A DNA stretch of 64,000 nucleotides from Deltaproteobacteria bacterium (GTDB taxonomy: Bacteria > UBA10199 > SPLOWO2-01-44-7): NCBI GenBank assembly GCA_016203765.1, contig JACQMB010000145.1, positions 72,964 through 136,963 of the forward strand, written 5' to 3'. The translations under genes were made by a program, and so were the position numbers. The notes under the pieces are model-generated. The model searched no databases, was not told where the DNA came from, and was given only the letters and a program-made list of their open reading frames with translations. Positions 22,382-63,386 of the stretch are shown piece by piece. How positions within the stretch are numbered: the stretch's first letter is position 1; each line of letters starts with the position of its first letter.

Positions 22382-22411
22382 TGTAGTTTGGGAACATCGA
22401 ACCCGCCACGT

Positions 22412-22432
22412 CGAAATAAGTATCGTGTCCCC
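22412..22432. repeat. REP-like half element (cgaaataagtatcgtgtcccc)
   Basis: Matches one arm of the hairpins at 32437, 33995 and 63373. Confidence 0.6.
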
Positions 22433-22442
22433 AAAAGATGCA

Positions 22443-25711: not shown

Positions 25712-28700
25712 TCTCTTTCGGTAACTACCATTTGACCGCCAAGTGTTCTCGCTTTGACACTGCGGTTATACATCGCCTCGCCGAAAGTGGGGGGCACTTG
25801 ATAGGTGCCTGCGTTGGTGGCGCGGACTCGGTAGACATATTCCTGGGTGGAACTGCCCACAAAACCGTAGAGAATCACTCGGTCTCCCCGGATCTCGACA
25901 TGTTCGGGGATCCAGCCGGTCTCCGAGTTGCGCGAGGCCTCGATGTCGACTTCAAAACCTCCCGGGAGCAAATCGACGATGGCGATATTCTGGCAACCGC
26001 TTTCTTGGATAGAGCGGAATTTAAGATGAACATCGACGTTGGCTCCGACTTCTGTCTTGTCGATTTCACTCCCCTCTTCATTGCGGTACTCCCGGTAGAC
26101 CTCTAGTTTGTCCTTGATCTGATTTTCAGGCAGGTTTCGGTCAAAACCGGCCTCGGTCATCTGGTAGAAAATGGATTGTTCAGCCTTTCCCTCAAAACGA
26201 ATTTTTTCAGCCTGCTCGGAAAAGGAAGCGGCGGGAAATGTTCCTTCCGGAAGCAAAAGGAGCTTGGATTGGCCGCCGGGCAGAATTTCGCTAACGGAGA
26301 CCTTGGCCAATTCGGCCTCCGGGACGGCATCCATATAGGCATCCAGCGCCATAATCGTGTAAGCGGAAGTGATCGTATTATAATGACCCTCCATAAGGGG
26401 TTGCAGTATTTGCATGATTTGGCCGCCGGTAAATCTTTTTAAATTTTCCGGAAAATGGCGGGCCACAATATAAAGATATTGGCTGTTATGATCGAAAGGC
26501 TCGCAGGAAGCGTGATGATCGGTTGTGCTGACGGCAGTGGCGGAAACTTTTGCGATGATGTCTTGAGCCTGGCTCTCTTTTTGCAAGAGTTGATAAGTCG
26601 CCGCGACGTAGAGACCGCTCAAATCTTTTTTCCAGGTTTTTGGATATTCCTTTTCCAGGGATTCGATTAAAACCGTTAACTCGTTTGTGGTGACAATCCC
26701 GTTACGGGTTAAGATATAAATGGCGTAGGCTTGATTTCTGGCTTTTGCAAGGGATGCCGGCACTTGATTCGACAGGTTTTTAAGAAACCCCAATCCTTTT
26801 TCCAGCAAACGGATCGGAACGGGGTAGCCCGATTCCTTGGCCTCGGTCAAAAAGTGGAGAGCATAGACACTTTGGAAATTGTCGACATGGGAATTGGCCG
26901 CCCAAAAGCCGAAGGCCCCCTCTTCATTTTGTCTTGCCTGCAAGATACGGATCGTCCGCCCCAAATTTGCTTCCGCCTTTTCGGGTTCAAAGCCGAAGTC
27001 GGGGCGATTGCGAAGCAACAGGGCCGGAACGGCTTGACTGACTATTTGCTCAGTACAACCGTAGGGAAATTCCTTTAGAAAATGGATCAATCCGTGCGCC
27101 AAACCTAAGGGGACCATTGAGGCGGATGCTTCCAGCTTTCGATGATGGGGATACATTTCTCGGGTGACGGGGACATCTTTTGTCCCTTTTTTAACAAATC
27201 CGGATGTCAGCGTTGTCACATAAGGCGTGGCCGGTCGGACGCTCAGATCGATTGTATATTGACTTTTTTTATTATCCAGCAACGCGGAGAAGGTAAAGCG
27301 GCCAGAGCCCAAAATGTCATTGGCCTTCACCTTAAAACGGGCTGTTTTCTCTTTCCCCTCCGGCACGTTGATTTTTTTGTTTGCCTCCTCCAAAATTTGG
27401 ACATGCTCGGAGGTTGCAAGGGCTAAGGTCACTAGGGCCGCCTCTCCTGAATTTTTAACATTATTCGTTACGGCAACACTGACCTCGAACGTATCACCAG
27501 GGGCCACGAAGGTCGGAACATTGGGGCTCATAATAAGATCGCCCCGGATAAAAGATTTTTTCTCGTCGACACCGATAGTCGAGGGGGAGACTGCAACGGC
27601 CATTACACGGAGGGTGCCGTTGAAGTGATCGGGAATATGGTAAACCAATTCCCTTTCTTTGCTGTCGAGATCAATAATCCCAGACCAAAAGATCGCCGGT
27701 TTCAATTTTTTTCTTTTAAAGGGATTCAGGTTAGCGCCCAAAGCCTCCGCTTCTCCGCCACCGGCTGCCGACAAGAATTGTTCCGAAACAAACTCCGGCA
27801 GGATAAGATCCAAAATCTGCGCGGTTGTCATCTCCAAGGCCCGCTTGCGAAAAAAGTGGTCGAGCGGCTTGGGGGTTTGATACTTGGCCACCTGCAATAT
27901 CCCTTCATCAACGGCAAAAATAATCGCCTTGGCGGGATGGGCCCCTTTATATTTAATGGGGAAGGGTTCTCCCGGCTTGGCCGTGTCGGGTGCGCTGATC
28001 TGAATCGGATGGATTCTCCTTGCCCGGCTGACCGTAAAAGGAGCCACCCCATAGCTCAAGGGACTCATGTAGATCTCTTTGGAATCGAGCGAGCGGACGA
28101 AGCTGACATTAATATAGGCATTTCCTTCCAGGTCGTTCGGCACGCGGATCGTTTGAACGGAGCCGGTGGTTTTGGTTTGAAACCATTTGAAGGCAAAAAC
28201 ACGGTCCCGCTCAATCGTTAGGAGTCCGCTGCCGGTATAGGGGGCCTTGATACTGACTTCTATCTCTTCTGCCGGATTAAAGTCGGTCTTGTTGAGTTTG
28301 ATGGTCAGTTCGGCATGTTTTTCCAGACTGCGGCCCAGATCAGCCTCGCCCACCACGCTAAACTCGATCCGGTTGAGTTCGGTATCGTTTTCATCACGAA
28401 CAATCAAGGCAAAATCGCCGGCATCTTTTGTGGGGAGTTCGTAGAGAAGACCATCCGCGGGAATGGCAAGCGGTTTTTTGGCTCGCCTCGTTTCTTTTCT
28501 GACCGATTCGTATTTGTAAACGCCGCTTTCCTGTTTGGTTAAGACCGAAACGTATTGAAGCTCCACGAAATCAAAAGTGAGTCCGGAGCTTGCGATTTTC
28601 GACAAGGCAGGATCGACGGCAACGAGATGCACGCTTCTTTCGCTCTCTTTGCGGATATAACGAAGATCCCCGTCCGGCTTGAAGCCGACCAGGAATTCCA

Positions 28701-31452
28701 GCGGGGAGACCAGAGTAGAGCTTTGAGAAACGACCGATCTGCCGCCGGCGGCTTCATAGCCTTCGGCGGTAAAGGTGAGATGATAGGCTGCCTTGCCAAA
28801 ACGTTTCAAATCGAGATCAAATTCACACTCTCCCTCTTCATTGGTCGTTTGATCTTTAAGGCGCTCGCTGATCTTGTTTTCTTCTTTAAAGGGATCGGTA
28901 AAAATATAATCGCGGTATTCTTGAAACTCAAAGGCCATTTGGGGCCGAAGCAAGATGTATCCGGCAACGCGCCGGTTGGCCGCGGGTGTGCCGAAGAGAT
29001 TTTTTAGTGTGACCCGGCCTTTCAAATTTTCGGGCAAAACCCAGCCTTTCTCTCTTTCTAAAGAAAGGGCGGAGGTGATTTTCATTCGGTCCGGAAGAAA
29101 TTCTTCCACTCTGACGGACGTTTCTCCAAGCCAGCTGCGCTTATCGTCGTCTTTGACCACATAGGCATCGACCCGGTAAATACCCGTGGGGGAGGTCTCC
29201 TCGGTTTGATAGGCAATCTCTTCAAAGGCCTGGCCTGATAGGAAAATCTTTTCCCTTTGTACCTCCAGACCCCGGGCGTCGCTGACGACGATTTCCAATG
29301 GAATATCGGCAAGCTTTTTGCTCCAGTCGGAGGTTTTGACGATGATGCCGATATGAAAAGTTTCACCCGGCCGGTAGATGCCCCGGTCCGAAAAAAGAAA
29401 GGCATCAAGGCGTTCTTTCCCGTAGGATGAGGTGCCGATGCCGCCAATATCGAAGCGGGAGAAGTTCAAGTCCCGGTCGCGCCGGTCGTAGGTTAAAAAG
29501 GAAAGGTCCTTTCCCTTGCGGACGACATAAACCGTCGGCTCTTTGTCACGCTTGAAATCCTTGAGCGAGGGAATGAGGGCGTGTCCTTGATCGTCCGTCT
29601 TTTTGGTTGCAATCGGCAGGCCGTTTTTGCCGAGGACTTCGACGGTTGCTCCCGTGACCGGGCGCCCCTGATCGATGGATTGAACAAAAACATCGTGGGT
29701 GCCGTGAGGGGAATCCTTGACCAGAAGACCGAGGTCGGTCACCAGGATAAAACGGTGGTCTTGGGAACCGATGAATTTCTTTTCTTCGGGGCGGTAACCG
29801 GAAACGGTAACGAAAAAGAGGCCGTGGTCAGAGGCGCCTTTGAGATAATCGGTGAAATCAAAGGCGCTGTATTGGGGTTTTTTCGACGCGGAGTCGGCCA
29901 GTTCGCGTATTTCGGTATAGCGCTCCGTAATATTGTCGCGGTCGAATTTGTAATAGTGAAAGTCGGGGTGATCAAAATTCCCGGCGGTTTGACTTACCAG
30001 ATGATTGACCTGATTTGGCAAGACCCTGCCGATTTCGAAATGGAGAGCGGGCACGCCGCGGGAGACGACCGTGATCGTCCTCTTGCCGGCCAGACTCAAC
30101 ACCGCCCCCTCATGCAGGATTTTGGCCTCCTTGGGAAGCGGCGGAACTTTCAAAATTTTGTCATGTTCCTTGGCCAGGATGTAGCCGCCATGGGATGAAA
30201 TACCCTTTTTAAGTTTGAGATAAAGATAACGGTCTTCTTCGGCCTCAAATTTAAAACTGTGAAGAGTGGAATATTCTTTGTCGGTGGGGATTGCCTCCAG
30301 TTTTAAAGGTGCGGCCGCATCCAAAACTTCGGGGCCTACTTCCGATGGGCTTTGCCAGCGATAATTTTTCTCAACCTCTCCTCCTTCCAGCAGGGGAGGA
30401 CGATCCAAGGGCAAAAGATAGGCTTCCAAATTTTTTTGAAAATCCTGAGACAAAACCCCGTCCGTCATCTCAAAAACCAAAACCTGTTCAGCCTCCAACA
30501 GTTTGTTGTAGGCGTGGGTCAGCGAGGCCTTCTCAAGCCTAAAAAAATTGTAAACACCTGGAATTCCCACTTGGAAAGCAATTTCTTCTTTTGTTGGCGG
30601 GCCGCCTTTGGCTGAGCGAATCCCTTTTTGAACAGTCACGATCATCTCTGCATCTTGCAACGGGATTGTGACGGTATTGGTATGAATGTAAGCCTCGCTT
30701 TTGAATTCATTGTAGGTGACGCGATAACCGAAATCCTTTTTCTTCTTCTCCTCTTTCATTTGAACCTGGATACGTTTCTCCAGACTGGCCGGATCGACCG
30801 GATGGCTAAAGCGGAGGGTTGCGAGGATCTTTTTGTTTTTGGGATCTCTCGGGTCTTGATAAAATTCCTTCTTGGCGAGTTCGGTCTGAAATGAAGCCGA
30901 TTGGAAGCGGTGCTCATATTTTTTAAGAAGGATGTGTTCGGGAAAAAGGGTTTTCGCGAAGGCGACATCAAATTCCTGGCCCACCGGCCAATCTTCTTTG
31001 GGAGTAAAAACGAGTTGCCGGTCGGATTCCCATTTCCAGGTCCCTTCTAATCCCGGTGAGAGTTGAATGCCTTGTGATATCTCTTGTCCGACCTGTTTTA
31101 GTTGGGCCACCGAGTTGTTAAAAATAATCCTGGCCGGATAGGGCTTGGCATCTTTTTCCATCGGCGTTGCGGAAGGGTTGTTTACATAAAAGGTGTATCG
31201 GACCGGCTTGGGAAGGATTTTATACCAAATAATCCCCCCGCTACCGCAGGCAATCAGCAACACCGAGAGCATGTGAAATGTCCAAAACCTGCGCGGGTGA
31301 TGGTGTTTTAGGGAGGTATAACGTGCAACCATCCGGGAACAGGGTTGCTTGATGCCGGTTTTAATGGAGACGAGCCATTTTGGAGGCATCCAGGAAACCT
31401 CACCAAAGACGGCCTTGAAAATTTTGAGGCCCTGTTTTTGATCAGATGCCAT
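25708..31452 (-). CDS. Bacterial alpha-2-macroglobulin family lipoprotein (YfhM/ECAM-like) with a thioester
   Basis: 1914 aa. Lipobox LLIACGSG. Thioester motif GCTEQ in FPYGCTEQIV. Stop overlaps the pbpC start, the classic A2M-PbpC pairing. Confidence 0.85.
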   Translation of the reverse strand: MASDQKQGLKIFKAVFGEVSWMPPKWLVSIKTGIKQPCSRMVARYTSLKHHHPRRFWTFHMLSVLLIACGSGGIIWYKILPKPVRYTFYVNNPSATPMEKDAKPYPARIIFNNSVAQLKQVGQEISQGIQLSPGLEGTWKWESDRQLVFTPKEDWPVGQEFDVAFAKTLFPEHILLKKYEHRFQSASFQTELAKKEFYQDPRDPKNKKILATLRFSHPVDPASLEKRIQVQMKEEKKKKDFGYRVTYNEFKSEAYIHTNTVTIPLQDAEMIVTVQKGIRSAKGGPPTKEEIAFQVGIPGVYNFFRLEKASLTHAYNKLLEAEQVLVFEMTDGVLSQDFQKNLEAYLLPLDRPPLLEGGEVEKNYRWQSPSEVGPEVLDAAAPLKLEAIPTDKEYSTLHSFKFEAEEDRYLYLKLKKGISSHGGYILAKEHDKILKVPPLPKEAKILHEGAVLSLAGKRTITVVSRGVPALHFEIGRVLPNQVNHLVSQTAGNFDHPDFHYYKFDRDNITERYTEIRELADSASKKPQYSAFDFTDYLKGASDHGLFFVTVSGYRPEEKKFIGSQDHRFILVTDLGLLVKDSPHGTHDVFVQSIDQGRPVTGATVEVLGKNGLPIATKKTDDQGHALIPSLKDFKRDKEPTVYVVRKGKDLSFLTYDRRDRDLNFSRFDIGGIGTSSYGKERLDAFLFSDRGIYRPGETFHIGIIVKTSDWSKKLADIPLEIVVSDARGLEVQREKIFLSGQAFEEIAYQTEETSPTGIYRVDAYVVKDDDKRSWLGETSVRVEEFLPDRMKITSALSLEREKGWVLPENLKGRVTLKNLFGTPAANRRVAGYILLRPQMAFEFQEYRDYIFTDPFKEENKISERLKDQTTNEEGECEFDLDLKRFGKAAYHLTFTAEGYEAAGGRSVVSQSSTLVSPLEFLVGFKPDGDLRYIRKESERSVHLVAVDPALSKIASSGLTFDFVELQYVSVLTKQESGVYKYESVRKETRRAKKPLAIPADGLLYELPTKDAGDFALIVRDENDTELNRIEFSVVGEADLGRSLEKHAELTIKLNKTDFNPAEEIEVSIKAPYTGSGLLTIERDRVFAFKWFQTKTTGSVQTIRVPNDLEGNAYINVSFVRSLDSKEIYMSPLSYGVAPFTVSRARRIHPIQISAPDTAKPGEPFPIKYKGAHPAKAIIFAVDEGILQVAKYQTPKPLDHFFRKRALEMTTAQILDLILPEFVSEQFLSAAGGGEAEALGANLNPFKRKKLKPAIFWSGIIDLDSKERELVYHIPDHFNGTLRVMAVAVSPSTIGVDEKKSFIRGDLIMSPNVPTFVAPGDTFEVSVAVTNNVKNSGEAALVTLALATSEHVQILEEANKKINVPEGKEKTARFKVKANDILGSGRFTFSALLDNKKSQYTIDLSVRPATPYVTTLTSGFVKKGTKDVPVTREMYPHHRKLEASASMVPLGLAHGLIHFLKEFPYGCTEQIVSQAVPALLLRNRPDFGFEPEKAEANLGRTIRILQARQNEEGAFGFWAANSHVDNFQSVYALHFLTEAKESGYPVPIRLLEKGLGFLKNLSNQVPASLAKARNQAYAIYILTRNGIVTTNELTVLIESLEKEYPKTWKKDLSGLYVAATYQLLQKESQAQDIIAKVSATAVSTTDHHASCEPFDHNSQYLYIVARHFPENLKRFTGGQIMQILQPLMEGHYNTITSAYTIMALDAYMDAVPEAELAKVSVSEILPGGQSKLLLLPEGTFPAASFSEQAEKIRFEGKAEQSIFYQMTEAGFDRNLPENQIKDKLEVYREYRNEEGSEIDKTEVGANVDVHLKFRSIQESGCQNIAIVDLLPGGFEVDIEASRNSETGWIPEHVEIRGDRVILYGFVGSSTQEYVYRVRATNAGTYQVPPTFGEAMYNRSVKARTLGGQMVVTERE

Positions 31453-31657: not shown

Positions 31658-32383
31658 TTACGTCGGTTTCAATGATCTCAACTGACCTTCCCCCGATTTA
31701 TACTTAATGATACACGCGAGGGTAGAGCCCTCCTTCACGAAGCTCTTCACATCGGCGAAAAAAATATCGGTGTCGTACTCGCAGGCGCGGGCCACGTGCG
31801 CGTAGTCCTGGCTAGCTACGAGCTTGCCTTCCTTCACTTCGAACTTGAGGTCGTTGTCGAGGAGTTGCTCATCGGTGTAGTAATCCTTGCATCCCTCCAT
31901 ATCAGGTGGAATATTGGCGAGCATCTTTTCCACAACCAAATGCTTGAAGACTTTCAGGTCACGAACCTGATCTTCAATGGCCACTTTTTCACCGCTGCGC
32001 AGGTCATAGAACGAAGTCCTAATGCCGGCATCCGGGTAAGGACCGCCACAATAGAAGTCGTAGCTACTAGTGATGGCCAGGGCTTCCTGATTGGCGAAGG
32101 TCACCTTGGGGGCGAGGTTCGATTCCATGTTCTTGCGTCGCTTGGGATCGGCGTCACAGATGTACCTCTTGGCTTCTTTCAACAGCGAGGTGTTCAGCTT
32201 ATTGCGAATCGCGCGGTTGGTGAGTTTGCGGGTGAGCTGTACGTACTGAATGCTAAATTTTCCGCGATTATCGTTTCCGCGAATCCGCTTGATTACGGTG
32301 AGTCCGGGTTGGATCTCTGCATGAGCCACGAGACCCGAGCCGAGAGCGCTAAGTGAGAGGGTGAGCAAAAAGACTTTCTTCAT
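31658..32383 (-). CDS. Secreted hypothetical protein
   Basis: Signal peptide MKKVFLLTLSLSALGSGLVAHA. No recognised domain. Confidence 0.45.
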   Translation of the reverse strand: MKKVFLLTLSLSALGSGLVAHAEIQPGLTVIKRIRGNDNRGKFSIQYVQLTRKLTNRAIRNKLNTSLLKEAKRYICDADPKRRKNMESNLAPKVTFANQEALAITSSYDFYCGGPYPDAGIRTSFYDLRSGEKVAIEDQVRDLKVFKHLVVEKMLANIPPDMEGCKDYYTDEQLLDNDLKFEVKEGKLVASQDYAHVARACEYDTDIFFADVKSFVKEGSTLACIIKYKSGEGQLRSLKPT

Positions 32384-32436
32384 AATTTCATCAATCGACT
32401 TGACCCCTTATACAAATTCGGGGGACAAAATTCGGA

Positions 32437-32484
32437 GGACACGATACTTAATTCCTCATAGGCCGAAATAAGTATCGTGTCCCC
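32437..32484. repeat. REP-like palindromic hairpin (GGACACGATACTT stem, ~21-nt loop)
   Basis: ggacacgatacttaattcctcataggccgaaataagtatcgtgtcccc. A perfect 13-bp inverted repeat. Confidence 0.8.
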
Positions 32485-32537
32485 TGATATCCACTATAGT
32501 TCGCCGCCTTGCATCCCCGCTTGCATTAAAGCACTTG

Positions 32538-33146
32538 CTACTTGCCGTTTTTTATTTTTTTGTCTCGTAAATATTTGTCAATGTTCGCAATAACTTTGTA
32601 TCCTCTGTCATAGTCGAAAATACAACTGTCCTTTTGTAAGCTGTTTCCTTTTTGGTCAATTAATTTATATTCTTTGCCAATTATCTTGAGGTCAGTGTCG
32701 TAGTACTCCGTTTTTGTCTCGTATGCAACATCGTCAGTGCAAATGCTGTTAAAAAAAATTGTCTGGCGTTCAAAAGCAAAAGTTTTTCCGTCTTTGTCAA
32801 AGTAATGAGAAAAGGTTATGTCCCAGTCCCCGCTTTCACTGTAAGGCATTTCTCTAGCAACAATAAGTTTTCCGTTGTTGCCTTTAAATAAGTTGTAAGT
32901 AGTTTCAATACTGTCTGGCCACTTTTCATTTTCTATTTGCACTAAATCATTCTTGTCAGCCAATTTTACAAAGACAATTATTTTATTTCTGTTGTTGTTG
33001 AAAAGGGTATCTACTTCTGCTTTCCGATGTTTAAGTTGCCCAATGTCTGTTTTGGAAATAAGTTGCAAAGTGTGCGTCTCAGAATTGCTAAAACTGCACA
33101 AAATCAACAGTCCGAAAAAAGTTGTCAGTATGTAAAAGTGTCTCAT
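32538..33146 (-). CDS. AT-rich small secreted hypothetical protein (possible orphan immunity or accessory gene)
   Basis: Signal peptide MRHFYILTTFFGLLILCSF. Markedly lower GC than the flanking DNA. Confidence 0.4.
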   Translation of the reverse strand: MRHFYILTTFFGLLILCSFSNSETHTLQLISKTDIGQLKHRKAEVDTLFNNNRNKIIVFVKLADKNDLVQIENEKWPDSIETTYNLFKGNNGKLIVAREMPYSESGDWDITFSHYFDKDGKTFAFERQTIFFNSICTDDVAYETKTEYYDTDLKIIGKEYKLIDQKGNSLQKDSCIFDYDRGYKVIANIDKYLRDKKIKNGK

Positions 33147-33206
33147 TTTAAAATGGCAAGTAACTGACCAGCCCCCGATATCGCGAAAGTGGCGATTCTC
33201 TTATAT

Positions 33207-33974
33207 TCAATCCGTCACCTGATAGATCAGAAGGACTATATTTTTCGGAAGAAACTCTTTTCTGAAATGGTCATAATAATGCTCACATATACCCCGCCAC
33301 CAAGGAGCATCGGCTCCCTCAGGTTGCAAAATCTTTTGATCGCTCAAGTATTTCTTAAATAAGGTTTGGAGTTTCTGAGGGGTATCCCATTGAGAGTTAT
33401 AGCTAGCTAAACTGATATGCCCACATGTGGAATAGTTTTCATCGACGAAAAGCGCAATAGCCGGTTTTTGGAGTAATGTCAGTTCTTTTTTATTCAAAAC
33501 AACTACGGGAGCAACGCCAATCACCTGACAACTGACAATATGGGCCTTTTTAACTGTGGCCAGATTTACTTTGATTCTTTCCGACTCTAATGTTGCAGTG
33601 AACGAAGTTCTTTTCTCAAGGAGATAATCGGCCCCATCACAGCAAATTTTATCCCGCTTTTCGGGAATGTAAGCAATAGAATAGATTTTCTGGAAAAGGG
33701 CCACTTCCTCGTCTGCGCCCTTTTTTATGAATCTCTTTAAAAAGGCCTCGTCGTTCAGAACAACTTTTTCAAAATTGTCACCTCTAACAACATACTGATT
33801 CCCTTTCTTAACGCAGCCACCATAACCACTGCTCTCTAAAAAGCCGGAAGTTGTTCTTCCATTCTTCATTTCCAAATCCGTTTTGATAATAAACGTTTCG
33901 GGAATATCCGCATAACACAAGGAAATCATGCCAAGCTGGGATAAAAACAATAAGAAAGCCAGTTTTTTCATCAT
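33207..33974 (-). CDS. AT-rich secreted hypothetical protein
   Basis: Signal peptide MMKKLAFLLFLSQLGMISLCYA. The ORF-track N-terminal extension runs through a REP hairpin, so the start was set at MMKK. Confidence 0.4.
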   Translation of the reverse strand: MMKKLAFLLFLSQLGMISLCYADIPETFIIKTDLEMKNGRTTSGFLESSGYGGCVKKGNQYVVRGDNFEKVVLNDEAFLKRFIKKGADEEVALFQKIYSIAYIPEKRDKICCDGADYLLEKRTSFTATLESERIKVNLATVKKAHIVSCQVIGVAPVVVLNKKELTLLQKPAIALFVDENYSTCGHISLASYNSQWDTPQKLQTLFKKYLSDQKILQPEGADAPWWRGICEHYYDHFRKEFLPKNIVLLIYQVTD

Positions 33975-33994
33975 TTGAAATCGGGGGCAATAGA

Positions 33995-34043
33995 GGGACA
34001 CGATACTTAATTCCTCATAGGCCGAAATAAATATCGTGTCCCC
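33995..34043. repeat. REP-like hairpin (same family, one mismatch)
   Basis: gggacacgatacttaattcctcataggccgaaataaatatcgtgtcccc. Confidence 0.8.
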
Positions 34044-34051
34044 TGATTTCG

Positions 34052-34097
34052 GGGGACACAATATCTATTTTTCGATGGAATTGTGTATTGTGTCCCC
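34052..34097. repeat. Variant REP-like hairpin (GGGGACACAATA stem)
   Basis: ggggacacaatatctatttttcgatggaattgtgtattgtgtcccc. 12-bp perfect inverted repeat. Confidence 0.75.
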
Positions 34098-34505
34098 GGA
34101 TTTCCTCTTTATACTGTTTTTATATTTTTTAATGGCTTGAGTAAAAGCATCGGATGAGAAGCCTGGATAATTTAACCTGTTATTTGGATGTGGGATGATT
34201 TCCCCAGGTGCCCACGGTCTAGCATCTAATAGCTGCGCAATATTTTTAATCGATAGGGAAACGTTTTTTCTGCTCTTCAATTTTTTTGTCAGTTCGAACC
34301 GCCCATCGATTCCCCTAATCCATCCACCTTTAACCAACCTGCATAGCCCGCTTTCGAATTCCTCCCGGGTGAAAATGGCATGATTAATGGCGTCCCCTGC
34401 GGCAATGATTTGCCAAAACTCAGCGGGCCCTTCCATGGCGGCAGTTCCAATGGCAACAAGTAGCCACGCATCAGACCATCGGTATCTGATTTGATCATTG
34501 TTCAT
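34065..34505 (-). CDS. Hypothetical protein, AT-rich (possible immunity or orphan module)
   Basis: 146-aa ORF in the AT-rich island downstream of RHS-1. Its 3' end overlaps the REP hairpin. Confidence 0.35.
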   Translation of the reverse strand: MNNDQIRYRWSDAWLLVAIGTAAMEGPAEFWQIIAAGDAINHAIFTREEFESGLCRLVKGGWIRGIDGRFELTKKLKSRKNVSLSIKNIAQLLDARPWAPGEIIPHPNNRLNYPGFSSDAFTQAIKKYKNSIKRKSGDTIHNSIEK

Positions 34506-34545: not shown

Positions 34546-34833
34546 TCAGAAGTCCAACTTGACCCCTTTTCTTTTTCTTATCTTAATTATTGGCAATCCC
34601 ATATAAGATTTGGGCAAAATGACTTTGCCTCCACCTTTTCTTAAGGTTACTACAACACTAGGAACTTCTCCGATTCCATATCTGTCAACAACAACATTAA
34701 CAACTTTTTTAAAACTAAATTCACTCAAAAAAGATTTTTGGATGTTCTTAAATAAAGCTTTATCTCCAAGAGAGTGACAAAGGTAATCAGTTTTTTCCTC
34801 ATCGCTCAGTTTTTTAAATTTCTCAAAGTTCAT
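34546..34833 (-). CDS. Putative immunity protein for the RHS-1 C-terminal toxin
   Basis: 95-aa ORF starting 1 nt after the RHS-1 stop. AT-rich like the toxin tip. Confidence 0.5.
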   Translation of the reverse strand: MNFEKFKKLSDEEKTDYLCHSLGDKALFKNIQKSFLSEFSFKKVVNVVVDRYGIGEVPSVVVTLRKGGGKVILPKSYMGLPIIKIRKRKGVKLDF

Positions 34834-34834
34834 T

Positions 34835-37800
34835 TCAATTAACTATAAAAATTTCATCAGTTTTAATTGGCCCCTCTACTTTAAACTGTGGAATTCCCTT
34901 TGGGCCCATATTTGTTTTGCCAGCAGGTTTTACCCGAACAGATGGTTTTACTTCAATCAATTCTCCCCCCTTTTCAAAGTATTTTCTAATTTTTGGATCC
35001 TTCTGAAGGTTCTTGTTATAAATTGTTTTAATAATATCATCAGGTTTGCTTAAATCAACCTTCCTAAGATCATCAAACTTTCCTACTGTCGGCCAATTCT
35101 TCTTAGGTAGTCCTCCTTCCTTTATTATTTTCTCATATGCACCTTTAGGAATAATTTTCCCATAGGCTTTGGTAACATCACTCCCCTTATCCACCGCTTT
35201 GATAAGTTTGGCGCCCTTGTTGACAAATTTCCCACCAGTGGCCACCCAGCCGGCGAAGGGGATGGCGGCGCCGGCGGAGAGGGCGGCATTTGTATAATCG
35301 CCCCTGGCAGTGTAAATGCCGGCATTAAGTAAATCCAGAGGCTCGCCAATGCCGGGGATGAGGCCACCCACATCAAGTACAAATTGGCCAACATCTAGAA
35401 GGGTCTCAACGAGTTCGTTTTTCTTCCCCTTCTCTGTTCCAAAGGAATCAATCCAATTCAACGGGTCGTTGGTAGCATACGCATACACATTGGGTCCATC
35501 GATCATGCCTAAGGGGTCCTTGGAGGTAAATTGGCCGAGGGTGGGGGAGTAGTAGCGGTTTTTGTAATAGTAGAGTCCTGTTTCAGCGTCGAAGTATTGG
35601 CCGGTGTAGGTGAGGGGGTTGGAGATGGGGGCGATGGGGGCCAGGTCGGAGGCCTTGGCGGCGGCGGTGCGGAGTTTTGGTTGCGGCTCCGGTCCCCGCG
35701 CGGTCAGCGCGCCGTATTCGCCATACTCGTAGCGCTGGGCCATCCGGCCGTGTTCATCGCTCAAGCCGGTGATGGAGCCGAGGCGGTCGCGGTGATAATA
35801 AAAAAGCCGCCCGCCCGACTTTAACGCCACCGGTTCATCGAGGGATTTGCCGTGGATGTAGACGTTGCCGAGCTGGCCGTTTTCGTATTCTTCGATGAGG
35901 TTCCAGTTGTCATAGACAAACTCGATGGAACGGATGTAGGGACCCGCGTCGGCGGCCTCATTCGAAACGGCTGTCTCGTTCGCTGCCACCGGCCCCATCC
36001 TTACGTTCTCAAAGAAGACCTGTTTTTTGACTCTCCGGTTGTGGGCGTCGTAGGTGTATTTGGCAACGAGCTTGCCGGTGGCCTTGTCCTTGACCTGGGT
36101 TAAGCGATTGAAGGGGTCATATTCGAAAAGGTATTGAGTGTTGAGGGAGGTAAGATTACCGCGTTCGTCGTAGGCTAGGGGATCGCCGTTGAAGGAGGCG
36201 TATTGAAACCCCGCGCCGGAGGCGATGTTTGTGACTTCTTCTTTCTTCTTGCCGTCTTTCTCAATAATGCTTCGCCACTGGCCCTCGGCGGCGTAGGTGT
36301 ATTCGCGTTTGGTTGCGGCCAGCGACCAGGCCTGATCCCATGAATTTTTGTTCCCTCTGGGACCTTCGGTCTTCCCTACTTTTTCCAGTTGATCCAAATT
36401 ATTGTAGCCAAAGACCTCCCAGGTCTTTTGTTTGACGTCTTCTTTTAAAATCACCCTCCCTTTGAGATCGTAGGCGTAGGCCAGTTTGGAGAGAATATTC
36501 TTTTCTTTTTGGTAGTTTTCCTCCACCAGTTGCATCAGCGAATCGTAATTCAAGTTTTTGGTAATGCCGTTGCCCAGTGTTTCTTTTTGGGTAAATCCCA
36601 ACAGGGCGTATTGATACTGGCTGACACTTTGGCCGTTCACCTGGATATTTTCCAGCCAGCCCGCGGGATCAAAACTCTGCGTTACTTCTTCGCCCGAAGG
36701 ATAGAAGAGGGCGGTCTTTTGGCCCCGAATGTCGAAACGTTTTTTTAAGGTGCGGCCGGCTAAAGTTTCTTGAACAAGATTGCCAAGATTGTCATAGCCA
36801 AATTGGGAGGTGATATCATCGGTGGGATCGGCGGGGTCGTTCAAATCAGTGCCGGCCGTCAGCCGGCCCAAGGGATCGTAGCCGTAAGTTTGCTTGTAGG
36901 CGCCGCTGGCCCTTTCAATCAAACGATTGAGGGCGTCATAGGTATAGTCATACTTCGTTTGGCCCGCGGTCAGCGAGGTAAGGTTGCCCGCCGCGTCGTA
37001 GGCGTATTCCCTGCGCACGCCGTCGGCTCCCACTTCGGTTTTTTTGCGCCCCTGGCTGTCATAAGTGTATTGGACTTTATTGCCCTGACCATCGAGGAAG
37101 GCCTCCAAGACTTCATTATTCCACAAAAGTTTTCGCTCCCTTGTCCCTTGCGCCTCTTTGAGCAAGCGTCCGATCCCGTCATAATAATAGAGCGTCTCCT
37201 GGTTTAAGGGATCGATCTCTTTAATGAGCTGGCCCAGGCTGTTATAGATTTTTTGGTAACTCGCCCCCTTGGCATCGGTTTGGGAGACAATCTGGCCCAG
37301 GGCGTCATATTGATAGCGCTCCGATAGGGAATGTAACCCCTTGGCGATCTTTCGCTCCGTGATCAGCCCTCTGGAATCGTAGCTTAATTGAATCGCGTTG
37401 CCCGAGGCGTCTTCAATGGCGGCGACTTCGCCGAAGGAATTATAGCCAAACTTTTGCGCCAGCCCCAGCGGGTCACGGATTTCCTTCAGCAGGGGACCCG
37501 CGTAGACAAATTCCTTTTTCACCCAATCTTGCGTCCCTTCCGCCGAGCCGACCAGCCTCTCTTCCTCGGAGACTTTGCGCCCCAGGGCGTCATAGGCAAA
37601 CCGGACTTCCTTTAAGATGGCGGCCTTGGCGTCTTTAAACTGATAACCGGCGATCTCCCCCAGCCCGGTGTAGTCAATCTCCAAATGACTGCCCAACGGA
37701 TCAATAAACTTGGCAACGCGCGAGAGCGAATCCCTTTGGTATTCCTTCCGGTTTCCCTTGGCATCGCTCTCGGCAATCAAAAAACCGTCCGCGTCGTATT

Positions 37801-40800
37801 CGAGCTTTCTCTGCGTCTCGCCTCCGGCCTTCTCCTCCGTCACCCGGTTGAAGGGGTCGTAGACGAATTCCCTCGCGGTCCCGTCGATCCCTTTAATCCG
37901 CGTCAGGTTTTCATTGAGATCGTAGGCGTATTCCTCCGCCACCCACTTCTCTCTGTTGACCTGGAGTTCCTTCTTAATGAGATTGTCTAAAACGTCGTAG
38001 TTGTAGCGCTCTCTTAATTGATAACCGAGGTCGGCCGCGTTTAAGGCCCCCGCCACGTCGCGAGTAACTTCCATCAAGTTATCATTGGCATCGTAGCGAT
38101 AATAGGTCTTGTTCTTTAACGCGTCCTCCTTTTGCGCCACCAGATTGTCGGCGCTGACCCAGTAGCGGGTCTGGTTCCCCATAGGGTCCGTCACCGCCTG
38201 AATGTTGCCCCGCAAATCGTAGGCCAAACGCAGGGCGCGGCTCGCCTCCCCGGCGGTCTCCGTCAGACTGACCAAATCGGCCCCCTGATAACCGTAGCGC
38301 CTTGCCTTTTGACCCTCGCTCTCCGCTATCAACTGGCCGTGTTCGTTATATTCAAACACCGTAACCAAATCCCCACGCCTGATCTCCTTGAGCAGGCCCG
38401 AAGGGGTGTAGGCGTATTCCTCGCGGCGCTTTTCGGCGCCCGAAATCATTTCCCGAAAGAGGGGCTTGTGCAATTCCTTGTCATAGCCATAACGCACCTG
38501 AATCGTTTTGCCGTCTTCCCCCTTGACCCGCTGTTCCACCAGGTCCCGCCCCTCATAGCTAAACAGCTCTTCCTTCCCGCTGGGATAAATATGTTTAGTA
38601 ACAAGCCCAACATTATTATATTCAAACTTTTCAGGCGAATTCTTCTCCGCCTGATGGCTCAAGCGCAAGCCTTGGGCGTTGTGCTCATAGGTATGTTGAA
38701 CCCCTTTTCTGTCCCAAACCGTCGTCCGGCTTAACGCCGTGTTGACCGTCGGCTTCGAAGCCTTCAACGCCTGGTACTCCACGCGCATCTGAAGGCTCTC
38801 TTTCCCGCCGAACAACTGCGCCGTGATCTTGTCCTTCTCCAATCCCTCGGCCCCGTAGACATTCTTTAAATAGACCTGGCCTTTAGGGTCCATGATCATG
38901 TTAAGATTGTGATTGAGCCTCGGCTCCAGCAGGCCGCCGCTATAGGCATAGCGGGTTGTTTTGCCTTGAGGAAATTCATCCGAAACCGGCGAGCGGACCG
39001 ACACAAGGTCTTTTTGAACGTCATGGGTATAAACCACTTCTCTTCCAAAAGAATCCGCCACCGAGGCCAGCAGACCCTCATCACTATAGCGGTACTCCAC
39101 CGCCCGCCCCAGCGTGTCCACCACGCGCACCAAAACAATCGCGCTCCCGCTCAGACCGTATTCAAATCGAAGCGCGTTTCCATGGGGGTCTTCAATCTTC
39201 GTCAGCCGCCCCTCGCTGTTGAAATAATGCCGACTCGCGTCGGCTTGTTTCAAAACATATCCCCCCTCCGTCTTGCCCAGCTCCGTGAAAAAACCGCGCG
39301 GCGAATTAAAACCCTGCCTCTTTTCGTTAAAACGATACCAGTAGCGCAAACCTTCCGCGCTCTGATGGACCACATCTTTGTTGGAAGGATTTAAGATCAG
39401 CTTCTCGTCGTAATTGTGCGTCCAGTTGTAGCCCAGCGGCCCCATCCGCTCCCATTGATTCCGGTAATAACGCTTCAACTCATAGTCGAGGCCCCGGCCT
39501 CTCAATTTTAAGTCGGCCGCCTCCAACGCGTACTCCCCGCTGTACAAAATAACAGGGTCCAAAGGCGAATCGCTGTCGGCTTGAGGTGATTCATCAGTGG
39601 CCCCGGTCTGATCCTCCTTCGAGGCTACTTTTACTTCTTCATACCCGCAGGCCTCTTCGTCCCCCTCCGCGCAGGCCTGGGATTTTTCCTCCCCTTCCTG
39701 CTCCGGCGTTTCGTAACCCTCCTCCGGAGCCTTCCCCAAGGCCACGATCTGCTCGTCCATTTGGACTTTGAAATCGCTCAAGCCGCCCATGATCTCATCC
39801 AATTTCTCCTTGGCCTTCGACGGGTCCATTTTTTCAGAGAGGCCTTCCGCCATTTTAGCCAGCTCTTCCAGCTTGGCCTTCTGTTCGGGGGTCAATCCCT
39901 TCGCCCCATGCCCCCCGAATATCCCGCGCCCAGCAAAATCCCCGCCGATCATCATAAACGACCGAGGCTTCTTTTCCAATTGCCAGATCAAATGCTTGAT
40001 TAAATTGATTCCCGACTTGACCTCTTCGATGTCGATCCAAATGCAACACTTCACAGACCTCCTAAAGTGCTCGTGCGCCGCTACCGCCCATATCCCCGCC
40101 ATCGCGGGAGAGGGTATCTCGATGTCCGGAATGCCTAGCGTCGGCACTCCCTTCAGCTTGTGAAACTGATGTCCCAGATAATCCCCCGCCGACAAATTAA
40201 AAGGATTGGGCAGCTTTGACCCCTCCAGCATATCCTTCAAATTCGCCTCAATCGCCGCCAAATCGATATTCTTAACCGAATCCATCTTGTCCTTGATCGA
40301 CTCCATCGTATCCGCCGCCCCTTGGGTCAGATCATTCAGCTTCTGTTCAAAATTCGCCCCCAGCATGTCAAACATCTCTTTATCAATAAAATCCTTCATC
40401 CCATCCTTCGTCGCCAGGCCCATTTTTTCGGATAACTGGTTTTGAAGCGGCCCCACAAAACCGGCCGGATCGTCCGTCATGTTTCCGCCAAAAGTCCCCC
40501 TCGTCCATTCATGAAACGTCTTGTCAACCATTTCCCCCAAGCCATTTGTTGCCTGGTCGGTCACCGAGCTGATCATCTGCTGAACCTTCGCCGCCCCGTC
40601 CCCGGCAATATCCGCCCCCTTTAACACGTTATTGCGCATGAACTGATCCACCATCCCGGGAAATTGGATCTGCATCTGATTCTTGAATTCCTGCTTTAAA
40701 AATTCCCGGTATTCGCCGCTCCCCTCCCAGGGTTGGGACACTCGCATCGGCATGTTAACATCTCCGGGAGTATGCTCGCCTAGCGGCTTGGTTGGAACGT

Positions 40801-41080
40801 AACGGTCCCCATATTTCGCCACCCACTTCTCCCTGGCCTGCACCGCCCAGGACCTCATCTGGTCCGTCACCGCCGGCTGACTTAAAAATTTGTTCGCCTC
40901 GCCGCGGGCATACTTTCTCAGTTTCCCCATATCCATTGCCGTCTGATAATTAAACGAACGCAGGGATTGAATGCTTTCATTGATATCCTGGCTTTGGATG
41001 GATGAGACGAACGGCGCGGAGAGAAAGATGACGGCGGTGAGAATGACAACCCTCAATGACATTGTTGCTTTATTCCACAT
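34835..41080 (-). CDS. RHS/YD-repeat polymorphic toxin 1 (signal peptide, N-terminal domain, YD-repeat shell, RHS core, variable C-terminal toxin)
   Basis: Many YD repeats (YDALGR, YDANDNL, YDPFNR and others). RHS core end motif PLTYTGQYFDAETGLYYYKNRYYSPTLGQFTSKDPLGMIDGPNVYAY. AT-rich ~210-aa C-terminal tip. Start set at MWNK with a GGAGG RBS. The ORF-track upstream 37 aa is read-through. Confidence 0.9.
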   Translation of the reverse strand: MWNKATMSLRVVILTAVIFLSAPFVSSIQSQDINESIQSLRSFNYQTAMDMGKLRKYARGEANKFLSQPAVTDQMRSWAVQAREKWVAKYGDRYVPTKPLGEHTPGDVNMPMRVSQPWEGSGEYREFLKQEFKNQMQIQFPGMVDQFMRNNVLKGADIAGDGAAKVQQMISSVTDQATNGLGEMVDKTFHEWTRGTFGGNMTDDPAGFVGPLQNQLSEKMGLATKDGMKDFIDKEMFDMLGANFEQKLNDLTQGAADTMESIKDKMDSVKNIDLAAIEANLKDMLEGSKLPNPFNLSAGDYLGHQFHKLKGVPTLGIPDIEIPSPAMAGIWAVAAHEHFRRSVKCCIWIDIEEVKSGINLIKHLIWQLEKKPRSFMMIGGDFAGRGIFGGHGAKGLTPEQKAKLEELAKMAEGLSEKMDPSKAKEKLDEIMGGLSDFKVQMDEQIVALGKAPEEGYETPEQEGEEKSQACAEGDEEACGYEEVKVASKEDQTGATDESPQADSDSPLDPVILYSGEYALEAADLKLRGRGLDYELKRYYRNQWERMGPLGYNWTHNYDEKLILNPSNKDVVHQSAEGLRYWYRFNEKRQGFNSPRGFFTELGKTEGGYVLKQADASRHYFNSEGRLTKIEDPHGNALRFEYGLSGSAIVLVRVVDTLGRAVEYRYSDEGLLASVADSFGREVVYTHDVQKDLVSVRSPVSDEFPQGKTTRYAYSGGLLEPRLNHNLNMIMDPKGQVYLKNVYGAEGLEKDKITAQLFGGKESLQMRVEYQALKASKPTVNTALSRTTVWDRKGVQHTYEHNAQGLRLSHQAEKNSPEKFEYNNVGLVTKHIYPSGKEELFSYEGRDLVEQRVKGEDGKTIQVRYGYDKELHKPLFREMISGAEKRREEYAYTPSGLLKEIRRGDLVTVFEYNEHGQLIAESEGQKARRYGYQGADLVSLTETAGEASRALRLAYDLRGNIQAVTDPMGNQTRYWVSADNLVAQKEDALKNKTYYRYDANDNLMEVTRDVAGALNAADLGYQLRERYNYDVLDNLIKKELQVNREKWVAEEYAYDLNENLTRIKGIDGTAREFVYDPFNRVTEEKAGGETQRKLEYDADGFLIAESDAKGNRKEYQRDSLSRVAKFIDPLGSHLEIDYTGLGEIAGYQFKDAKAAILKEVRFAYDALGRKVSEEERLVGSAEGTQDWVKKEFVYAGPLLKEIRDPLGLAQKFGYNSFGEVAAIEDASGNAIQLSYDSRGLITERKIAKGLHSLSERYQYDALGQIVSQTDAKGASYQKIYNSLGQLIKEIDPLNQETLYYYDGIGRLLKEAQGTRERKLLWNNEVLEAFLDGQGNKVQYTYDSQGRKKTEVGADGVRREYAYDAAGNLTSLTAGQTKYDYTYDALNRLIERASGAYKQTYGYDPLGRLTAGTDLNDPADPTDDITSQFGYDNLGNLVQETLAGRTLKKRFDIRGQKTALFYPSGEEVTQSFDPAGWLENIQVNGQSVSQYQYALLGFTQKETLGNGITKNLNYDSLMQLVEENYQKEKNILSKLAYAYDLKGRVILKEDVKQKTWEVFGYNNLDQLEKVGKTEGPRGNKNSWDQAWSLAATKREYTYAAEGQWRSIIEKDGKKKEEVTNIASGAGFQYASFNGDPLAYDERGNLTSLNTQYLFEYDPFNRLTQVKDKATGKLVAKYTYDAHNRRVKKQVFFENVRMGPVAANETAVSNEAADAGPYIRSIEFVYDNWNLIEEYENGQLGNVYIHGKSLDEPVALKSGGRLFYYHRDRLGSITGLSDEHGRMAQRYEYGEYGALTARGPEPQPKLRTAAAKASDLAPIAPISNPLTYTGQYFDAETGLYYYKNRYYSPTLGQFTSKDPLGMIDGPNVYAYATNDPLNWIDSFGTEKGKKNELVETLLDVGQFVLDVGGLIPGIGEPLDLLNAGIYTARGDYTNAALSAGAAIPFAGWVATGGKFVNKGAKLIKAVDKGSDVTKAYGKIIPKGAYEKIIKEGGLPKKNWPTVGKFDDLRKVDLSKPDDIIKTIYNKNLQKDPKIRKYFEKGGELIEVKPSVRVKPAGKTNMGPKGIPQFKVEGPIKTDEIFIVN

Positions 41081-41411
41081 ATTGACCTCCTGATCAAGTT
41101 CCAAGGCCGTTATTTTTATTCTTGGCGGAACTTGATGAAAAGTTGCTTTATTGCACGAAAGTAAAGCAAAATTCGTGCCAGAAAATAGCAATATATTTTT
41201 TATTATAAATCATATAGATAGAAAATGCGTTTGACGTTGAATCGTGGTAATGTGTCTTTGGTTGGGACACAGTGTGCTAAAAGTAGGACACTTTTTGCAT
41301 GAGGCGCCCTCTTGGGCAGGTTATTATAAGTAATTGACAGTTTTAGGCTTTTTTTAATAATCTGAGGCGCACGGCGGTTGGCATTTGGTTTGCAGTTGCA
41401 AGAGAAGGTAC

Positions 41412-56109: not shown

Positions 56110-56662
56110 CAACAGACAAGGACAAGCCGCCGTGGGTTATGCCCTGGCCCTGGCCGTCGTGGCGGTCGGCATGGGTGTGGTTTTAAACAGCCCCGAGCTG
56201 AGGCAGGGGATTGCCGAATTTTACACCAACGCCGCCACCCGCGTTATTCATGGCGGAAAATTCGGCGAATCCGATTTGACCGCCGCCAAGGATGAAACAT
56301 GGGGATCAGCGCCTTCGGATGAAACGGCCGGAACGCCGACTGAAAGCGGAACTCCCTCCGGCGGGGACGGCACGGGTGCCGGAGATGGTTCCTCAGGCGG
56401 TTCTTCGGATTCCGGGCAGACCACCCAGACAGGGGGCGGCGGCTTGGGGACCGGGGGGGTGAATACCCCGGGAACGGTTCCGGGCGAGACGACTGCTTCC
56501 ACGGGTCCCTCGACGCAACCCACCGCGCCAACGGGCTCCGTCCCGCCGGAACCCGGCGCGCCGAAAGGTCCCTTTGCCGATCAAAATATGTCTTCCGCCC
56601 CGGTTGAAAATCCGCAGGAGCCGGCGCAATGCGAAGCGGCGGCGGATAGCGCCGGAATATGA
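56096..56662 (+). CDS. Pilin-like protein with a non-canonical Flp-type N-terminus and a Gly/Ser/Thr-rich tail
   Basis: NNRQGQAAVGYALALAVVAVG resembles the Flp G/xxxxEY motif with E replaced by G. The C-terminal ~120 aa is G/S/T/P-rich. Stop overlaps the RHS-2 start. Confidence 0.45.
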   Translation: MRKINNRQGQAAVGYALALAVVAVGMGVVLNSPELRQGIAEFYTNAATRVIHGGKFGESDLTAAKDETWGSAPSDETAGTPTESGTPSGGDGTGAGDGSSGGSSDSGQTTQTGGGGLGTGGVNTPGTVPGETTASTGPSTQPTAPTGSVPPEPGAPKGPFADQNMSSAPVENPQEPAQCEAAADSAGI

Positions 56663-63365: not shown

Positions 63366-63372
63366 ATATTCT

Positions 63373-63386
63373 GGGGACACGATACT
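63373..63386. repeat. REP-like half element (ggggacacgatact)
   Basis: Same family as 32437, 33995 and 22412. Lies between the immunity gene and the transposase. Confidence 0.6.

Follow-up and report, generated by a model that had tools for sequence, protein, structure and literature searches.

What places short DNA palindromes between small, compositionally foreign genes directly behind an RHS toxin gene, and what are these genes? The question is raised by a 64,000-nucleotide (nt) stretch of a Deltaproteobacteria bacterium (GenBank assembly GCA_016203765.1, contig JACQMB010000145.1, positions 72,964 to 136,963; hereafter the window). In this stretch, the minus-strand gene RHS-1 is followed by five small open reading frames (ORFs) and by three hairpins, H1, H2, and H3. 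A model that had seen only the DNA letters and their ORF translations (the sequence-only reading) had proposed an array of orphan immunity or accessory cassettes, assembled at hairpins resembling repetitive extragenic palindromic (REP) sequences. We consider it probable that the hairpins are mobile palindromic repeats of the TIRYT class, lodged in the gaps between separately acquired genes of low guanine-plus-cytosine (GC) content behind the toxin gene.

H1, H2, and H3 are inverted pairs (head-to-head dimers) of one 19-nt arm, GGGGACACGATACTTAATT, which we call M1. They are short, imperfect, repeated palindromes and, except for H3, which overlaps the 3′ end of ORF146, they are extragenic. Folded as single-stranded DNA, they reach z-scores of -5.2 to -6.0 (H1, -5.4 and -6.0), and 0 of 200 shuffles fold as well; the three-member palindrome family of the sequence-only reading is confirmed in membership and position. 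H1 and H2 belong to the same subfamily, being 96% identical over 55 nt with a common loop and a common orientation; their likeness is no greater than that of either to a third copy 30 kb away. The hairpin feet read TTCGGAGGACAC, AGAGGGACAC, and TTCGGGGGACAC, with neither GTAG nor GTGG among them. A third short hairpin (34036-34059, GTGTCCCCTGATTTCGGGGGACAC) can form between H2 and H3, from the right arm of the former and the left arm of the latter; alternative folds are possible in this cluster, and the best-energy fold of the minus strand uses the 34036-34059 pairing.

The arm is repeated well beyond the island. An nhmmer profile built solely from arms of other organisms was run on the window and returned exactly 8 arms at E ≤ 0.005, with the next-best match at E = 0.32; the two arms of H1 score E = 1e-7 and 1.5e-6. 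Likewise, the 16-mer GGGGACACGATACTTA occurs 8 times with at most 3 mismatches, against 0.28 expected, a count reached in 0 of 100 shuffles. In all, the 64 kb hold three M1 dimers and two solo arms, and one further arm lies just past the window end. At 22411-22436, a solo arm sits in the 61 nt that separate two convergent genes, one for a radical-SAM protein and one for a peptidase M48. For the same organism there are two independent short-read contigs, both matching the window at 100% identity; the first breaks off within H2 and the second within the right-hand M1 arm past the window. Because de Bruijn assemblers stop at multicopy repeats, contig breaks at M1 copies fit such a repeat.

Other genomes carry the same arm. 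A collection holding one genome per species (596 Gb) was scanned with a 15-nt pattern, which is too short to be specific; it gave at least 120 loci, many of them chance singles, and true family members were sorted from chance matches by an AATT extension and by clustering. The AATT continuation is present in 43 of the 136 pattern matches listed, against about 0.5 expected. At least 31 loci contain the 19-mer GGGGACACGATAYTTAATT without mismatch, with hosts among the Omnitrophota (several metagenome-assembled genomes, MAGs), Desulfobacterales including Desulfonema magnum, Gamma-, Alpha-, and Zetaproteobacteria, Acidobacteria, Aminicenantes, Syntrophales, and Clostridiales. At 10 loci or more, these arms form full hairpins around unrelated loops. 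As the sequence-only reading had supposed, the palindromes form a single dispersed family; the motif occurs beyond this locus, with further copies both elsewhere in the window and in many other genomes. A text search of papers for the M1 motif string gave 0 matches. In several Omnitrophota MAGs and one Clostridiales-labeled MAG (L003, L015, L104, L106, and L120), a conserved stretch, CGGTAACGGYTA, follows the M1 arm, a sequence pattern that points to a longer shared unit in that lineage.

These wider copies tie M1 to a transposase. In a gammaproteobacterial MAG (contig L034), M1 arms at 93+ and 122+ on one side and at 866- and 895- on the other flank a Y1_Tnp gene in inverted arrangement. In an Omnitrophota MAG (L102), arms at 4174+ and 4283+ and at 5094- do the same. 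The two Y1 proteins are 50% identical to each other, and their flanking 19-mers are identical. Fragments of Y1 genes adjoin M1 arms in three further contigs (L044, L087, and L017). The gammaproteobacterial contig (L034:1-2470, MAG N3S-Bin_1) also contains a 157-nt direct repeat (116-272 and 2180-2336, 97%), made up of an M1 arm and the terminal 3′ part of the Y1 gene. A WG-repeat lipoprotein gene and a homolog of Tae4, a type VI secretion system amidase effector (PF14113, E = 2.5e-22), lie between this partial copy and the complete Y1 unit, a second case of M1 repeats beside toxin-type genes.

The window has a Y1/HUH tyrosine transposase gene of its own, cut by the window end; contig L122 supplies the full-length protein of 326 amino acids (aa). 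A metagenome scan returned 80 relatives of this protein at 35-66% identity, and 62 of the 80 carry arms of a second motif, M2 (GGGGTCAAGTCT), usually inverted around the gene where the contig covers both sides. The M1 16-mer occurs in only 2 of the 80, weakly (3 mismatches) and in neither case adjoining the gene. The window gene has an M2 arm upstream, and its partner arm, at L122 2597-2620, overlaps the Y1 stop codon. Since most of the relatives and the window gene carry M2 arms, the cognate flank of the gene is M2 and not the hairpin motif; the window gene is weakened as a candidate for the transposase of the hairpins.

The M2-flanked gene is itself enclosed by an outer pair of M1 arms, with the left arm at 63367-63386 and the right arm beyond the window, at about 2905-2939 of L122. 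The outer right end reads ...TTTCAGCCTATGAGGAATTAAGTATCGTGTCCCC, which is the loop half plus arm of H1 and H2, with 34 of 35 nt shared and one mismatch. Two histories would account for this nesting: H1 and H2 could be internal-deletion miniatures of the outer M1 unit around the Y1 gene, or, alternatively, an M2-flanked Y1 unit could have landed inside an M1 hairpin. Between the Y1 gene and the outer right M1 arm lies an ORF for a 98-aa hydrophobic membrane protein (L122:2595-2891) without a family match; it is unrelated cargo inside the outer M1 pair.

These features assign the repeats to a kind of element that is known but has seldom been studied. The names TIRtron and TIRYT have been given to RAYT-like genes that have terminal inverted repeats (TIRs), and not GTAG REPs, on their flanks; many of the TIRs share the sequence GGGGWSAS, and they are scattered as single copies, dimers, and clusters (Di Nocera et al. 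2013, PMC3733652). Most TIRYTs are members of TnpAY1 subclass 2.1, the second-largest TnpAY1 subclass in the census of Quentin et al. (2018, PMC6006769), where it was present in 14.9% of strains; its features are the HuH motif NHVH or NH[YF]H, the Y motif YIELNP or Y[IV]HLNP, and a C-terminal helix-turn-helix resembling DnaA_C. The start of M1, GGGGACAC, fits GGGGWSAS exactly, and that of M2, GGGGTCAA, fits at 7 of 8 positions. The HuH and Y motifs read NHYH and YIHLNP in the window protein, NHVH and YVELNP in L034, and NHVH and YIEMNP in L102.

Given the GGGGWSAS fit, the subclass 2.1 motifs, the absence of a GT[AG]G foot, and profile scores below the REP transposase cutoff, we label M1 a TIRYT-class repeat and not a canonical REP; judged by analogy, it would be REP- or REPIN-like in its working while standing outside the canonical REP family. 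The term REP-like, used by the sequence-only reading, holds for the transposase link of REP/RAYT type and fails for the canonical GTAG-footed REP. The locus resembles TIRtrons in its Y1/HUH gene with NH[YF]H or NHVH and Y[IV]xLNP, in the inverted GGGGWSAS repeats around the gene, in the dispersal as singles, dimers, and clusters, and in its patchy distribution over many phyla. It differs in that M2 fits at 7 of 8 positions, that two repeat families are nested around one gene, that the 19 nt of the arm do not vary between phyla while identity among the associated proteins is only about 50%, and that the local hairpin loop is the inner sequence of the outer repeat's right end.

Two better-known systems are similar in part. 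With the REP/REPIN sequences and RAYTs (TnpA-REP) of Enterobacteria and Pseudomonas, the locus shares short palindromic extragenic repeats that are often at operon 3′ ends and sometimes run into gene ends, and a Y1 gene of single-copy type with inverted flanking repeats. It differs from them in lacking a 5′ GT[AG]G foot, in its longer stems (19-23 bp), and in Y1 scores below the REP_Tyr_transpos cutoff; moreover, REP/RAYT pairs have been described as lineage-specific and vertically inherited, whereas the M1 arm is common to several phyla. With IS200/IS605 elements and their transposase-less derivatives (PATEs), it shares the Y1 HUH enzyme family. These elements recognize DNA hairpins on single strands and have miniature non-autonomous derivatives, to which the M1 elements may be likened. 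The differences are that there is no TnpB gene, that the arms are inverted around the gene and are not same-strand subterminal hairpins, and that a target-site signature was not identified.

In terms of mechanism, H1, H2, and H3 would be non-autonomous miniature elements of the GGGGWSAS class, served by HUH single-strand-DNA transposases related to those of the REP/RAYT system. We infer activity on single-stranded hairpins from TnpA-REP and IS200/IS605; by that analogy, the hairpins would be copied into non-essential intergenic DNA by a Y1 enzyme that works on single strands once they have folded, and the copies would be tolerated at the 3′ ends of transcription units. The island itself would have been put together from at least three separately acquired pieces: the RHS C-terminal part with ORF95 and ORF146, ORF255, and the Bacteroidota-type lipoprotein gene ORF202. 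The repeats would then have settled in the gaps at the 3′ ends of ORF146 and ORF202, with H3 overwriting the 3′ end of ORF146.

Several points weigh against this account. The window Y1 protein, of the M2-flanked subfamily, shares no more than 30-36% identity with the Y1 proteins whose genes are flanked directly by M1 in other genomes; this divergence and its M2 flanks suggest that the enzyme moving M1 here may be absent. The M1 copies counted in this organism are those of 64 kb and two short contigs, and that the island modules arrived separately we infer from their composition and from where their homologs occur, not from sister genomes. We know of no TIRYT that has been tested biochemically, and neither transposition nor cleavage has, to our knowledge, been demonstrated for the class. 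The C-terminal helix-turn-helix appears only as a sub-threshold Bac_DnaA_C match (E = 0.085), and scores against NF047646, the curated NCBIfam profile of REP-associated tyrosine transposases, fall below its cutoff of 80: 74.5-76.6 bits for the full and cut forms of the window protein, 67.7 for L034, and 53.5 for L102. Finally, Quentin et al. found no REP-like sequences near subclass 2.1 genes (PMC6006769).

The composition of the island bears on the second half of the account. On the minus strand, the order is RHS-1, ORF95, ORF146, H3, H2, ORF255, ORF202, H1, ORF241, and then the genes for alpha-2-macroglobulin (A2M) and PBP1C (Table 1). The island is thus bounded by RHS-1 and by a housekeeping-type A2M/PBP1C operon, with no second RHS gene on the far side. 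Against a window GC of 0.526, values are 0.323 for ORF95, 0.348 for ORF202, 0.401 for ORF255, 0.44 for ORF146, and 0.434 for the C-terminal part of RHS-1; ORF241, at 0.518, is host-like and lies outside the AT-rich island. All five minus-strand ORFs of the sequence-only reading are present, and the low GC that it gave to most of the small genes applies to four of them and not to ORF241. Its signal peptides are found, judged by eye, as N-terminal signal-like sequences in three of the five (ORF241, ORF202, and ORF255) and not in ORF95 or ORF146. In GC and in homolog distribution, the data support its picture of a compositionally foreign mosaic downstream of the RHS toxin gene. The hairpins coincide with the compositional junctions of this mosaic, and H1, just 3′ of ORF202 on the coding strand, sits on the boundary between low-GC and host-GC DNA; the coincidence is ambiguous, because any junction of separately acquired genes is intergenic. 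No tRNA marking an integration site is found in the window.

Table 1. Positions of the repeats, transposase gene, RHS genes, and island genes in the window.
Feature	Position	Strand	Description
Solo M1 arm	22411..22436	-	GAAATAAGTATCGTGTCCCC, E 3e-7, without partner arm
PBP1C gene	23388..25427	-	A2M/PBP1C operon
A2M gene	25708..31452	-	Alpha-2-macroglobulin; A2M/PBP1C operon
ORF241	31658..32383	-	241 aa, signal-peptide protein, upstream of A2M/PBP1C operon
Possible M2 arm remnant, marginal	32397..32411	-	AAGGGGTCAAGTC, E 0.0098; adjoins H1, just upstream of ORF241 start
H1	32432..32487		Arms 32432-32454/32465-32487, GGACACGATACTTAATTC / GAAATAAGTATCGTGTCCCC, 10-nt loop
ORF202	32538..33146	-	202 aa, GC 0.35, Bacteroidota-type lipoprotein; deposited as HY466_07040
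ORF255	33207..33974	-	255 aa, signal-peptide protein, near-orphan
H2	33995..34042		Arms 33995-34013/34024-34042; between ORF146 and ORF255
H3 (variant M1 pair)	34049..34100		Arms 34049-34063/34086-34100, GGGGACACAATA arms, 22-nt loop
ORF146	34065..34505	-	146 aa, small winged-helix family (WSDAWLL..AAGDAINHAIFT); deposited as HY466_07050
ORF95	34546..34833	-	95 aa, GC 0.32, no signal peptide; starts 1 nt past RHS-1 stop
Possible M2 arm remnant, marginal	34557..34571	-	E 0.04; within last codons of ORF95 (..KGVKLDF*)
RHS-1	34835..41191	-	2118 aa, RHS repeats and DUF6531, core ends DPLNWID
RHS-2	56659..63009	+	77% identical to RHS-1 over ~1880 residues
Solo M1 arm	63367..63386	+	GGGGACACGATACT, downstream of RHS-2/ORF116; left member of outer pair around Y1 gene
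M2 inverted repeat	63431..63457	+	AAAGGGGTCAAGTCTTGACATTTGC, ~30-50 nt upstream of Y1 start
Y1/HUH tyrosine transposase gene	63481..64000 (cut by window end)	+	PF01797 E 1.6e-11; NHYH, YIHLNP

The island genes have separate affiliations and are not a coherent cassette array. Pfam, NCBIfam, and PADLOC were searched with the five small ORFs, with ORF116 (a small ORF behind RHS-2), and with the C-terminal parts of both RHS proteins; nothing was above threshold in these collections, even at E ≤ 5, and there were only sub-threshold hints of PdaC for ORF241 and of DUF4056 for the RHS-2 C-terminus. Sequence searches of the PDB with ORF146, ORF241, and the C-terminal part of RHS-1 gave no matches, and Foldseek searches of the PDB with models of ORF146 and ORF202 gave none at E ≤ 0.001.

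ORF95 is rare, with nine representative relatives among 1.84 billion clusters. One relative, P0160, has 801 aa and matches the domain in 12 separate stretches, so the ORF95 fold also occurs as a tandem-repeat protein. ORF95 and ORF146 form a conserved pair; in contig L205 they are 57% and 69% identical at the protein level and 66% at the DNA level. There, only 1 nt separates the start of the ORF95 homolog from the stop codon of a gene for a tetratricopeptide repeat (TPR) protein, which is not a toxin, and an M2-like arm lies directly 3′ of the ORF146 homolog. TPR genes occur on both contigs, at 54099-55757 upstream of RHS-2 in the window and at L205:2-697 directly before the pair.

The ORF146 family comprises 38 proteins with an invariant core (WSDAWLL...AAGDAINHAIFT...). 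The AlphaFold model of ORF146 (pLDDT 81) has a winged helix and a long C-terminal helix, and its nearest PDB folds are PadR/MarR-type regulators, at non-significant E-values; its fold class is evident, and the protein models as a PadR/MarR-like winged-helix protein. More distant relatives follow a peptidase M24 gene or head small-ORF arrays with attC-like spacers. In L214:484-622 and L215:507-713, such relatives head arrays of same-strand small ORFs (DUF6188, DUF4440, and others) whose spacers have RYYYAAC...GTTRRRY-like ends, for example ACCCAAC...GTTGGGT; judged by these ends, the two arrays may be integron gene cassettes.

ORF255 has a single homolog, at 47% identity on a 0.33-GC contig, and no M1 arm was found in the flanks of that homolog. 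ORF202 has 117 homologs at 35-58% identity; all the named ones are from Bacteroidota and labeled lipoprotein. They stand alone among unrelated genes, with no toxin adjoining, on DNA of 0.29-0.38 GC. The ORF202 model (pLDDT 84) has one helix and an eight-stranded sheet, and no solved structure matches it. The deposited HY466_07040 is a 176-aa version from a later start, which drops the signal and lipobox region conserved in the ORF202 family.

H3 has left its mark on ORF146. Conservation in the ORF146 family stops near ...AIKKY, and the remaining tail is not conserved; the closest relative (69% identity) ends at about this point, from which the last ~12 codons of ORF146 are identified as H3. 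These codons and the stop come from the hairpin, and the stop codon lies in its loop. The sequence-only reading had noticed the peptide KSGDTI read through hairpins at two gene ends, and both cases hold: the C-terminus of ORF146 runs through H3 (...KRKSGDTIHNSIEK*), and a false N-terminal extension of ORF255 runs through H2 (MCPPKSGDTIF...). The extension is an artifact of naive ORF calling, which lengthens ORF255 to 284 aa (33207..34061) from a TTG start. The deposited 146-aa HY466_07050 keeps its hairpin-encoded tail.

We hold the cassette model to be unlikely; in it, the small ORFs would serve RHS-type toxins as orphan immunity or accessory cassettes, and recombination or insertion at the palindromes would have gathered them behind RHS-1. 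Position speaks for this idea. The ORFs lie directly behind an RHS gene whose C-terminal ~200 aa (34835-35440) are divergent, low in GC, and without a family match; RHS-1 and RHS-2 diverge past their common ...DPLNW[IV]D core end; ORF95 begins 1 nt past the RHS-1 stop; and hairpins mark the compositional junctions. Further support comes from RHS-2, which also has a small lipoprotein-like ORF behind it and an M1 arm after that, from the small same-strand arrays headed by ORF146 relatives in L214 and L215, and from the M1 arms that bracket a Tae4 homolog and a lipoprotein in L034.

The content of the island speaks against it. A tblastn search of 31453-34834 with both RHS proteins found no RHS core or C-terminal remnant (best E = 3), by which orphan RHS fragments are rejected; no immunity family in Pfam, NCBIfam, or PADLOC is matched; ORF202 relatives live in unrelated, toxin-free contexts; ORF146 models as a winged-helix, DNA-binding type of protein; the ORF95-ORF146 pair recurs behind a TPR gene; and the likeness of H1 to H2 is at the background level of the family. 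The cassette claim of the sequence-only reading is therefore not borne out. Arrays of orphan toxin and immunity genes in rhs and contact-dependent inhibition (CDI) loci are alike in having a low-GC variable region that diverges past a DPxxW core end and is followed by small ORFs; here, in contrast, there are no orphan C-terminal fragments and no recognizable immunity families, and ORF95 and ORF146, the first two ORFs, are found together again behind a gene that encodes no toxin.

ORF95 may nonetheless be the RHS-1 immunity protein: its position fits, as does its GC of 0.32; the C-terminal part of RHS-1 has 0.43, and both values are far under that of the window. The recurrence of ORF95-ORF146 behind a TPR gene weakens this proposal. 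The C-terminal part of RHS-2 (62281-63009) is also divergent, at GC 0.37; 5 nt downstream lies ORF116 (63015-63365), a 116-aa lipoprotein-like ORF of GC 0.36, with an M1 arm directly after it. The RHS-2 C-terminus and ORF116 are a more conventional candidate toxin-immunity pair.

A further reading gives the repeats an active role: the GGGGWSAS hairpins would serve as recombination substrates for a Y1/HUH single-strand system by which foreign genes are captured and shuffled behind toxin loci, a functional analogue of integron attC working with another enzyme class. It is hinted at by the hairpins at every compositional junction, the unrelated ORF inside the outer M1 pair, the M1 ends that bracket Tae4 and a lipoprotein in the gammaproteobacterial MAG, and an arm that is invariant across phyla; we rate it as improbable.

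Another reading, in our view quite improbable, takes H2 and H1 as the ends of one transposase-less, hairpin-bounded element, an IS200/IS605 derivative or PATE, that brought in ORF255 and ORF202 as a single-stranded unit. The two hairpins, 96% alike over 55 nt and in the same orientation, do bracket 1.56 kb with both genes (GC 0.40 and 0.35). IS200/IS605 Y1 transposases use same-strand subterminal hairpins (PMC6006769), and the outer M1 pair around the Y1 gene also holds an unrelated ORF, of 98 aa. Yet a shared orientation of two copies has a 50% chance, and a third copy 30 kb off is as similar as H1 is to H2. Relatives of ORF255 and ORF202 are never neighbors elsewhere, the sole ORF255 homolog lacks a flanking M1 arm, and M1 arms around Y1 genes are inverted, not direct.

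It is very improbable that the hairpins are host regulatory structures only, that is, terminators or stabilizers of mRNA 3′ ends, and not mobile DNA. They are well placed for such a role, with H3/H2 and H1 just 3′ of ORF146 and ORF202 on the transcribed strand and the solo arm at 22411 between convergent genes, and E. coli REP sequences are known to stabilize upstream mRNA. On the other hand, the coding strand has no U-run past the stems, and a terminator scan flags just the H2/H3 junction, on the non-coding strand, with overall counts at the shuffled expectation; intrinsic terminators are accordingly not supported. Moreover, solo arms cannot fold, Rfam has 0 matches in the whole window at the gathering threshold, and the same 19-mer flanks transposase genes in unrelated phyla.

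Small same-strand ORFs with imperfect palindromes between them, and ORF146 relatives followed by RYYYAAC...GTTRRRY-like ends in L214 and L215, recall integron gene cassettes, but we are almost certain that the palindromes are not attC sites, an identity rejected because 31401-35000 has no RYYYAAC-N35-130-GTTRRRY pair on either strand (an integrase gene was not searched for in the window), some ORFs have no palindrome after them, and the arms match a Y1-transposase-linked family and stand singly between housekeeping genes.

The preferred account, of TIRYT-class repeats in a mosaic of acquired genes, has consequences for several fields. TIRYT and subclass 2.1 Y1 proteins are almost unstudied. 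To this known kind of repeat, the locus adds two sharply defined motifs in a nested arrangement; together with its relatives, it provides two arm-conserved repeat families, GGGGACACGATACTTAATT and GGGGTCAAGTCT, tied to two protein subfamilies, with hairpin dimers that look like miniature derivatives. The constancy of the 19-nt arm across phyla, next to proteins that are about 50% identical, suggests a very constrained recognition site and offers a concrete substrate for biochemistry. For RHS biology, the lesson is negative: a gene that lies behind an RHS gene, is low in GC, and codes for a signal peptide is not, on those grounds alone, an immunity gene. For annotation, it is that a repeat can write spurious KSGDTI... 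ends into called genes, including a deposited 146-aa protein.

One minor likeness within the island remains to be recorded. The 3′ end of ORF241 (31680-31699) and the DNA just upstream of ORF202 (33162-33181) match at 17 of 20 positions, AACTGACCnnCCCCCGATnT; about 0.2 such pairs are expected by chance, which puts the match at roughly chance level. Part of it, CCCCCGAT, resembles the outer flank of M1 arms.

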